Shown: one piece after another, positions 9,881-10,930 of the stretch
Position numbering within the stretch: position 1 is the stretch's first letter
Layout of the letters: every line of letters begins with the position of its first letter
IMG/VR virus record: IMGVR_UViG_2698536471_000010
DNA: 12,164 nt
Origin: a virus
Lineage: Duplodnaviria > Heunggongvirae > Uroviricota > Caudoviricetes
Direction: 5' to 3' (one strand)
The notes under the pieces: model-generated
The model's input: the letters and a program-made list of their open reading frames with translations, nothing else
What the model was told of the DNA's origin: nothing
Database searches by the model: none
Translations under genes and position numbers: made by a program

Positions 9881-10930
9881 TTACCCAAGCACGCCAGTTG
9901 CAAAGGCGTGATCAAGAAAACGAAAAATTAAATCAACCTGAGAGCCATGCTTTTCTTCGAACGCCAGCGGATCCGCATGAAGCTCGTTGTGATGCTCCCG
10001 ACACAGCGGTAGCGTGAAAATATCGTGAGATTTTGTCCCCATTCCGCCCTGACCATGACCAATCAGGTGATGGGGATCGTCGGCTGGCTTACCACAACAC
10101 GCACACGGCTGAGTCTTCACCCAGCGTGTGTATTTCTCGTTAACCCAGCGGCGACGTTTAGGTCGTTTCATGAAAGATTCCGGAGACTCAGGATCAACGG
10201 CAATGCTGACCACCGTCTTTTCCTGTGGTGGGTTCTGTTGCTGGTGGACGTCAGGCAGTAACGCAATATTTTTTGTGCGCTGCTTCAGTATGCTGGTGGC
10301 GGTCTGCTCTCCCGGCACGATGTCGCTTTCACGGTACATTGAGCGGATTTTTTCCGCACGCACCCCCAGCGAACGACGTAATACCGCTTCCGGTAGCGCG
10401 TCCGCCACCTGATTGCGGACCGCCCACCAGGATAATTCAGCCAAAGATAATTCACGCTCCTGCGTACCGCTTATTGCGTGACCGATGACGTCAATCATCC
10501 ATGCTGACAGGTTTTGATGAGCAAGTTGCTCGAGTGATTCGGATGTCTGGTCACGCAGCTGGTTGTCGCAGTGCCAGCACAACACCATTGCGCCGGTACC
10601 ATAACGGTGAATGACAGTTTCGCTGTGATGATAATCGCCGTGTGGCCACTGGCAGGATTTCACGTGACGCAACAGCCAGTCAGACAATGCACCAGCACCA
10701 CCAGCAGCACGAATCACCCGTGCGTTACTGAAAAACGGCAGCAATGTTTTGTCTTCCACCAGCGGCTGGCGAACGGCAGGAACGACCCCGGACGGCAGAT
10801 TACGCATGCTTTTCGGTTCCGGCTCCATCAATACCCGGGTATTGTGGAATACTGGCATGGATTCACGGCCCGGCTTAACGATCACCAGCCCGAGTTCCGG
10901 TACCAGAACAGGTCGAAGTAATACCCGCAC
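9881..10930 (-). CDS. YdfU-like DUF968 protein with C-terminal HNH/zinc-finger-like nuclease motif
   Basis: 349 aa, same length and position as Qin-prophage YdfU next to Q; C-terminus CACCGKPADDPHHLIGHGQGG...CREHHNELH. GTG start immediately after the upstream stop with GGAGG SD; in-frame ATGs at 10858, 10828 and 10807 are alternatives. Confidence 0.75.
   Translation of the reverse strand: MRVLLRPVLVPELGLVIVKPGRESMPVFHNTRVLMEPEPKSMRNLPSGVVPAVRQPLVEDKTLLPFFSNARVIRAAGGAGALSDWLLRHVKSCQWPHGDYHHSETVIHRYGTGAMVLCWHCDNQLRDQTSESLEQLAHQNLSAWMIDVIGHAISGTQERELSLAELSWWAVRNQVADALPEAVLRRSLGVRAEKIRSMYRESDIVPGEQTATSILKQRTKNIALLPDVHQQQNPPQEKTVVSIAVDPESPESFMKRPKRRRWVNEKYTRWVKTQPCACCGKPADDPHHLIGHGQGGMGTKSHDIFTLPLCREHHNELHADPLAFEEKHGSQVDLIFRFLDHAFATGVLG

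Follow-up and report, generated by a model that had tools for sequence, protein, structure and literature searches.

A YdfU-type DUF968 protein of a lambdoid prophage early operon: a putative zinc-finger HNH nuclease with a separate N-terminal domain

What does a YdfU-type DUF968 protein do for the phage that carries it? The question is raised by a gene in a 12,164-nucleotide stretch of tailed-phage DNA (the window), for which a first-pass annotation proposed a C-terminal HNH-like nuclease motif and, from tight coupling to an upstream 92-aa gene and a position next to rusA, a role associated with recombination or packaging. YdfU-type genes belong to a prophage segment with matches in most E. 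coli genomes, and the neighboring HNH subfamilies, those of Ref and Gp16, are nucleases tied to RecA. On balance, and with considerable room for doubt, the reading favored here by analogy is that the protein is a zinc-finger HNH nuclease akin to Ref and Gp16 that acts in early phage recombination or replication. If true, this would give a function to one of the commonest uncharacterised enterobacterial prophage genes and would shed light on recombination-intermediate processing by lambdoid phages, in which the protein would act beside RusA.

The DUF968 coding sequence in the ORF list is complete (9881..10930, minus strand; 349 aa), with a GTG start and a TAA stop at 9881-9883. This GTG start is taken to be right, since the N-terminus of the protein lines up in the alignment with the Met start of its homologues (MRALLKP and similar). 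Pfam DUF968 (PF06147) is matched over aa 160-346 at 258.2 bits, far above the gathering cut-off of 27.8 (E 5e-77), and the match covers the whole 171-position profile. PHROG 96 ('HNH endonuclease') is matched over nearly the full length (aa 1-348 on profile positions 1-333; E 3e-175). Collinearity with YdfU-type proteins includes the N-terminal ~160 aa outside the Pfam model, and 34 full-length homologues with 25-82% identity align end to end. Searches of NCBIfam and PADLOC with the protein gave no match. The family assignment made at first reading is therefore upheld.

Among E. coli prophage genes, this one is unremarkable and very common. A 2.2-kb segment around it is 100% identical to prophage DNA of E. 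coli OkiPb01713, where the product is annotated as WP_001265038.1, 'DUF968 domain-containing protein'. Used as a query, this segment (the DUF968 gene with rem, the 92-aa gene, rusA, and the start of Q) has matches in 4558 of 5426 complete E. coli genomes, and in 1168 of these the match spans no less than 80% of the query. A tblastn search with the protein matched 186 phage records, and 3104 cluster representatives match it at E<=1e-3, in keeping with the wide distribution that had been claimed for DUF968. Full-length homologues extend to Vibrio phages and P1. Enterobacterial-type prophage DNA with 85%, 49%, and 49% identity to the query protein also turns up in three records whose labels name a Veillonella parvula MAG (L005), a Vagococcus sp. 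assembly (L041), and an Actinomycetes MAG (L045); its presence there is probably due to binning or sample contamination.

The C-terminal part of the protein (aa 251-349; 9884..10180, minus strand) holds an HNH, or His-Me finger, domain and a preceding basic patch. Its core motif (aa 276-318; 9977..10105, minus strand), delimited from sequence, predicted strands and helix, and conservation, reads C276-A-C278-C279-GKPADDP-H287-H288-LIGHGQGGMGTKS-H302-D303-IFTLPL-C310-RE-H313-H314-NEL-H318, and thus contains exactly the motif first quoted for it. C276, C279, C310, and H313 are putative zinc ligands, forming the CxxC...Cxx(C/H) site of the zinc-finger HNH subclass. The candidate catalytic-type residues, assigned from sequence and model, are H288 at the end of strand 1, D303 at the 'N' position, and H314 and H318 in the helix. 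In an alignment of 35 full-length homologues (25-82% identity), C276 and D303 are present in all 35, H288 in 32, and H314 and H318 in 31 each. The remaining zinc ligands are somewhat more variable (C279 in 26/35, C310 in 28/35, and C or H at position 313 in 26/35), and joint loss of C279 and C310 is clearest in P0159, P0177, and P0211. With zinc-site and catalytic-type residues both conserved, the Cys/His cluster is more than a structural zinc ribbon, which the first-pass annotation had named as a refuting outcome, and its HNH reading holds in this respect.

An AlphaFold2 model of the full protein (pLDDT 88, pTM 0.57) agrees with this reading. Its C-terminal part contains a strand at 285-288, a strand at 306-309, and then a helix at 311-319. 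This unit of a beta-hairpin and a following alpha-helix can be superposed on HNH nucleases of solved structure, with a His at the end of strand 1 and metal-binding-type His/Asn positions in the helix, and a fold search with the protein returns HNH nucleases. Since the motif residues are also kept among the 35 homologues, the resemblance goes beyond chance. Foldseek against the PDB gave no significant match, and PDB sequence searches run with the whole protein, with its last 99 aa, or with the family profile gave only chance C2H2 zinc-finger matches or nothing. Sequence and model together make an HNH fold of the C-terminal part very likely.

Profile comparisons place this domain beside three characterized or solved proteins, namely PhiNM1 Gp16 (hhalign; 94.5% probability, E 7.9e-8), P7 Ref (Pfam: RecA_dep_nuc; E 1e-5), and YbcO (E 1.3e-5). 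All share the pattern CxxC...HH...PLCRxHH with the DUF968 protein. Ref cleaves only RecA-bound DNA and requires a basic N-terminal segment for DNA binding (PMC4330346), and Gp16, a nickase expressed early, interacts with RecA (PMC12817073). Residues C279, C310, H313, H288, H314, and H318 are among those that map onto mutated residues of Gp16 (C148, C181, H184, H157, H185, and H189). Mutations at the Gp16 zinc site, in the counterparts of C279, C310, and H313, abolished the in vivo phenotype; those in the counterparts of H288, H314, and H318 reduced toxicity in part or left it unaffected (PMC12817073). The catalytic assignment in the Ref/Gp16/YbcO subgroup is thus not clean. A literature search found no published nuclease assay of a DUF968 member; by analogy with these relatives, the protein is nevertheless likely to be an active nuclease.

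The first-pass annotation overlooked a second module. Residues 1-190 (10361..10930, minus strand) form, in the model, a separate and confidently predicted globular domain of mixed alpha/beta structure and no known fold, for which no solved structural relative was detected. The domain carries a Cys/His cluster of its own (C93, H101, C118, and C121, with W119 and D122; 10568..10654, minus strand). C93 and C118 are invariant (35/35 homologues). C outnumbers H at position 101 (21 versus 13 of the 35), and H outnumbers C at position 121 (27 versus 8); W119 is found in 34/35 and D122 in 32/35. Strands at 105-110 and 113-118, forming a beta-hairpin, and then a helix at 119-125 are modeled around the cluster, and from sequence and model we regard the cluster as a putative second zinc site. 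Two origins for the domain were considered and set aside. As a degenerate duplicate of the HNH domain it reached only P 0.03 in the profile comparison, so a duplicate origin is not claimed. Comparison with NinB/Orf detected no relationship, and the architecture of Gp16 is consequently not reproduced in the DUF968 protein.

The two domains are joined by a poorly conserved, low-confidence linker (aa 191-250; 10181..10360, minus strand), with pLDDT values of 64, 64, 90, 65, 44, and 73 in successive 10-residue blocks and below 50 for residues 230-242. Within it, aa 199-203 (10322-10336, minus strand) form an acidic motif, (K/R)(E/D)(S/T)D, that the alignment shows to be conserved: position 201 is E or D in 32/35 homologues, and D203 is kept in 27/35. 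Directly before the zinc finger lies the basic patch RPKRRRW (aa 256-262; 10145-10165, minus strand), which as RPKxxRW is almost invariant in the 35-sequence alignment. By analogy, the acidic motif may be a partner-binding peptide, and the basic patch may anchor DNA like the basic N-terminus of Ref. Several database proteins join the YdfU N-terminal domain or the whole protein to other phage domains (P0143, P0190, P0192, P0243, P0125, and P0039). These apparent fusions, to tail-fibre, tip-attachment J, portal, and Q domains, were considered as clues to function and rejected; they are probably inter-module prophage deletions or misassemblies, not real fusions.

Phages P1 and P7 carry a variant of the family. 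Upf95.7 of P7 (L082, 3405-4448), whose gene is also present in P1, is a full-length YdfU homologue (DUF968 E 5e-50) in which the HNH histidines are replaced (HH by YI, H314 by Q, and H318 by E) while the N-terminal domain and the zinc cysteines are kept. Three distant homologues (P0212, P0224, and P0247) likewise lack H288, H314, and H318 and retain the cysteines and the N-terminal domain. Since four homologues keep this domain without the catalytic histidines, part of the family's function apparently needs no nuclease. The Upf95.7 gene comes immediately after humD, which has a LexA box, phd, doc, and fdc; the next gene after it is the late activator gene lpa. P7 also encodes the related nuclease Ref, as, according to the literature, does P1. 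The confident model, the lack of a solved relative, the invariant Cys/His residues, and the retention of the domain despite histidine loss led us to consider that it is a new module docking a Ref-like HNH nickase on recombinase filaments or on specific branched DNA. We put this forward as a speculation that is rather unlikely to prove right as it stands; if it did, the YdfU type would represent a second class of filament- or structure-guided phage nucleases, very widespread and working with RusA.

The genomic setting bears on when and with what the protein acts. In the window, the block runs on the minus strand in the order rem, 92-aa gene, DUF968, rusA, and Q, and is preceded by hok/sok and a terminator. 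The first gene past the strong terminator-like hairpin (11676-11659, after hokD) is rem (11277..11528, minus strand; 83 aa; PHROG 340), annotated as 'protein Rem' in the identical genome region, with a promoter-like site before it (11636-11607). The 92-aa gene follows (10932..11210, minus strand, in the ORF list), a PHROG 1212 member of unknown function whose product has no match in Pfam, NCBIfam, or PADLOC. One base separates its TAA stop from the GTG start of DUF968 (GGAGGTAAcGTG), and a GGAGG lies shortly ahead of this start, inside the 92-aa gene; judged from this junction, the two genes are translationally coupled. Only 12 nt past the DUF968 stop codon is the start of rusA (9509..9868, minus strand), which encodes a Holliday-junction resolvase (Pfam RusA E 9e-17; PHROG 34). 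The end of rusA is overlapped by a Q-type antiterminator gene (8946..9512, minus strand; DUF1133 E 4e-105, Phage_antitermQ E 6e-8, PHROG 753), which closes the early operon.

Comparison across relatives separates what is general in this arrangement from what is local. Among close relatives on viral contigs, the 92-aa gene directly precedes DUF968 with the same junction in 73 of 75, so the coupling claimed for the pair stands for E. coli-type prophages. Across 80 loci drawn from species-representative genomes, in contrast, a homologue of the 92-aa protein occurs in only 16, a count on which its candidacy as a family-wide obligate partner or immunity protein was dropped; the gene is a fixed neighbor only in E. 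coli-type prophages. The adjacency of rusA is likewise real in the window and lineage-specific as an order, since rusA directly follows DUF968 in only 20 of 73 close relatives on viral contigs and usually lies upstream in other genera. In 56/80 loci a RusA homologue lies no more than 4 kb from the DUF968 gene, on the upstream side as a rule, although this linkage may reflect shared position only, as both are standard nin-region genes and their co-occurrence is uncontrolled. Between such an upstream rusA and DUF968 there is typically an antirepressor gene (KilA-N or Rha/ANT); still farther upstream are methylase genes and a gene encoding a LexA-type DNA-binding protein. Directly downstream of DUF968 is almost always a Q antiterminator, of several types. 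The same slot before Q is occupied across many enterobacterial genera at 42-55% identity. Outside E. coli, the typical order in L009-L081 is Dam/MT-A70 methylase, LexA-domain protein, RusA, KilA-N or Rha/ANT, DUF968, and Q, and a small gene for a LexA DNA-binding domain lies upstream of DUF968 in 31 of these loci.

Other features of the window were noted in passing. A hokD-type toxin gene with its sok antisense RNA occupies 11745-12069 (minus strand; HOK_GEF E 3e-23; RF01794 118 bits). An N6/N4 DNA methyltransferase gene lies at 7298-8374 (minus strand; Pfam E 6e-43; PADLOC type II MTase E 1.5e-160), and the matching genome region has no annotated restriction enzyme next to it; the gene, which lies after Q, probably encodes an orphan phage methylase. 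Just after a 65-aa ORF downstream of Q, there is a terminator-like hairpin with a T-run (8521-8538, minus strand), which may be a terminator acted on by Q. An ORF on the plus strand (6377-6703) coincides with iraM, annotated in the matching genome as an anti-adapter protein gene. A 654-aa ORF (4138-6102, minus strand) corresponds to a DUF6645 gene that carries a frameshift annotation in the matching genome and is a single open frame in the window.

Taken together, these observations are best explained by a protein built of two modules and encoded in the delayed-early (nin) operon of a lambdoid prophage. The first module (aa ~1-190) would be a compact domain with a presumed zinc site, followed by a flexible linker of ~60 aa ending in RPKRRRW; the second (aa ~265-349) would be a zinc-finger HNH nuclease domain of the subgroup formed by Ref, Gp16, and YbcO. 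Zinc bound by C276, C279, C310, and H313 would keep the beta-beta-alpha unit folded, H288 would activate water, H314 and H318 would hold the catalytic divalent metal, and D303 would shape the loop. DNA would then be nicked or cut with little sequence specificity, and the basic patch and the N-terminal domain would target the enzyme to a DNA structure or a recombinase filament, whether of RecA or of a phage annealing protein. Produced early together with RusA, the protein could process D-loops and branched intermediates of recombination-dependent phage replication or repair. The recombination-associated role suggested at first reading is still the best inference, given the HNH homology to Ref and Gp16 and the frequent proximity of RusA; taken by itself, a recombination or RecA-linked role is a reasonable possibility that falls somewhat short of probable.

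Other explanations assign the protein a different target or no catalysis at all. It may be a nuclease directed at the host or a competitor, whose DNA it would damage instead of serving phage recombination, with aims such as shutdown of host replication, a bias in the lysis-lysogeny choice, phage exclusion, or counter-defence. Such a role would be in line with Gp16, which inhibits growth and replication of S. aureus and promotes phage propagation (PMC12817073), and with Ref, which one report places behind phage-enhanced ciprofloxacin lethality (PMC4713147). The P1/P7 homologue, moreover, directly follows the phd-doc addiction module and the LexA-controlled humD. Set against this, no PADLOC defence family is matched, strong toxicity fits poorly with a segment present in so many E. 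coli genomes, including cryptic prophages, and the gene holds a fixed early-operon position by RusA and Q, not that of a moron or a defence hotspot. We therefore consider this reading unlikely. Improbable to a greater degree is a non-catalytic, regulatory zinc-finger protein whose two Cys/His modules would bind DNA or a protein partner, with the HNH turned to binding, for example in the modulation of late-gene activation. The location of the gene directly upstream of a late activator gene in both lambdoid phages (Q) and P1/P7 (lpa), the homologues that lack the catalytic histidines and keep zinc cysteines and N-terminal domain, and the finding that Gp16 zinc-site mutations, but not H157A, abolished the phenotype (PMC12817073) are all consistent with it. 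However, the catalytic-type residues are intact here and in 31-32 of 35 homologues, as expected under selection for catalysis, and the closest structural relatives are active nucleases.

A free-standing homing endonuclease, that is, a selfish HNH gene cutting alleles that lack it, would accommodate the N-terminal domain as a sequence-specific DNA-binding module. HNH homing endonucleases are common in phages, and nin regions are mosaic. Occupation of one slot before Q across enterobacterial genera, with full-length homologues as far as Vibrio phages and P1, speaks against such a selfish element; the Pfam scan found no known homing-endonuclease DNA-binding modules in the protein, and none of the papers cited describes Ref, Gp16, or YbcO as a homing enzyme. 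This makes homing very improbable. The packaging alternative of the first-pass annotation, in which the protein would be a terminase cofactor for cos or pac cleavage like HK97 gp74, is likewise very improbable. In the OkiPb01713 region, the terminase genes (terS/terL) are ~10 kb from DUF968, with Q and the whole lysis cassette between them, and the gene belongs to the early operon; its position directly before Q and far from terminase disfavors a packaging role. The flanks in the 80 loci are RusA, antirepressor, methylase, and Q genes, not terminase or portal genes, the sole portal 'fusion' looks like a deletion chimera, and structure and profile comparisons point to Ref, Gp16, and YbcO as the best relatives instead of gp74-type proteins.

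Much of this picture has precedents. The 2014 study of the Orf recombinase pointed out the zinc-finger HNH motif of 'DUF968' proteins (PMC4118853). The 2017 survey of His-Me finger nucleases placed DUF968 and DUF1364 in group 7, naming Qin YdfU and DLP12 YbcO (PDB 3G27), listed RusA and Q as DUF968 neighbors, proposed a recombination role, and mentioned DUF968 fusions to Erf and Rad52 domains (PMC5714182). A DUF968 fusion to RusA is also in print (PMC5714182, PMC4118853). The HNH nature, the RusA/Q neighborhood, and the recombination hypothesis are thus already published (PMC5714182, PMC4118853), and what a genome scan finds at this locus repeats the databases and the 2017 survey. The present analysis adds the N-terminal domain with its own Cys/His cluster, the counts for the 92-aa gene and rusA, the position relative to terminase, and the loss of the histidines in P1/P7.

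Among named systems, YdfU of the K-12 Qin prophage (DUF968, His-Me group 7) is of the same family as the protein described here and shares its architecture and RusA/Q neighborhood. The two loci differ in that rusA lies here between the DUF968 gene and Q, with the 92-aa gene ahead, whereas in Qin the Q homologue quuQ is presumably directly downstream of ydfU. YbcO of DLP12 (PF07102, formerly DUF1364; PDB 3G27), a 96-aa protein, consists of the HNH domain only, with D at the H318 position; the DUF968 protein differs from this single-domain type of ~96 aa in its N-terminal domain and linker and has no PF07102 match. The gene also differs from HK97 gp74-type HNH genes, as it has no adjacent terminase, portal, or head genes.

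Ref of P1 (PF16786 RecA_dep_nuc; PDB 3PLW), a RecA-dependent HNH endonuclease, belongs to the same HNH subgroup, although the DUF968 protein has no Pfam match to PF16786. In place of the 76-aa disordered basic N-terminus of Ref, it has a folded 190-aa domain and a linker, and its gene belongs to the nin operon, whereas a C1 operator near cre governs Ref. Work on Ref has examined its use as a programmable nuclease guided by RecA, and a related enzyme could, if the favored reading is true, be of similar interest.

Gp16 of PhiNM1 (PF16784 HNHc_6, 'Orf-HNH') is the closest experimentally studied sequence relative of the HNH domain. The two proteins have an identical CREHHNExH, and their zinc and catalytic-type residues map one to one. 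Gp16 itself passes the DUF968 cut-off (29.1 versus 27.8), although Pfam assigns it to HNHc_6; conversely, the DUF968 protein matches HNHc_6 below threshold (22.8 bits versus 26.6), on the HNH core only (aa 271-319). Both genes are early and lie in regions that also encode RusA, but the Gp16 gene follows ssb, whereas the DUF968 gene precedes rusA and Q. The N-terminal domain of Gp16 is reported to be NinB/Orf-like (PMC12817073), whereas that of the DUF968 protein has no detectable relative, which sets it apart from Orf-HNH proteins. Rap/NinG of lambda belongs to a different His-Me group (24, PF05766) from DUF968 (group 7), and a Pfam scan that included PF05766 found no match to it in the DUF968 protein. 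Like the DUF968 gene, it encodes a His-Me finger protein late in the nin region, in its case a branch-specific HNH-type nuclease linked to recombination, and the 2017 survey draws the same functional analogy between the two (PMC5714182).
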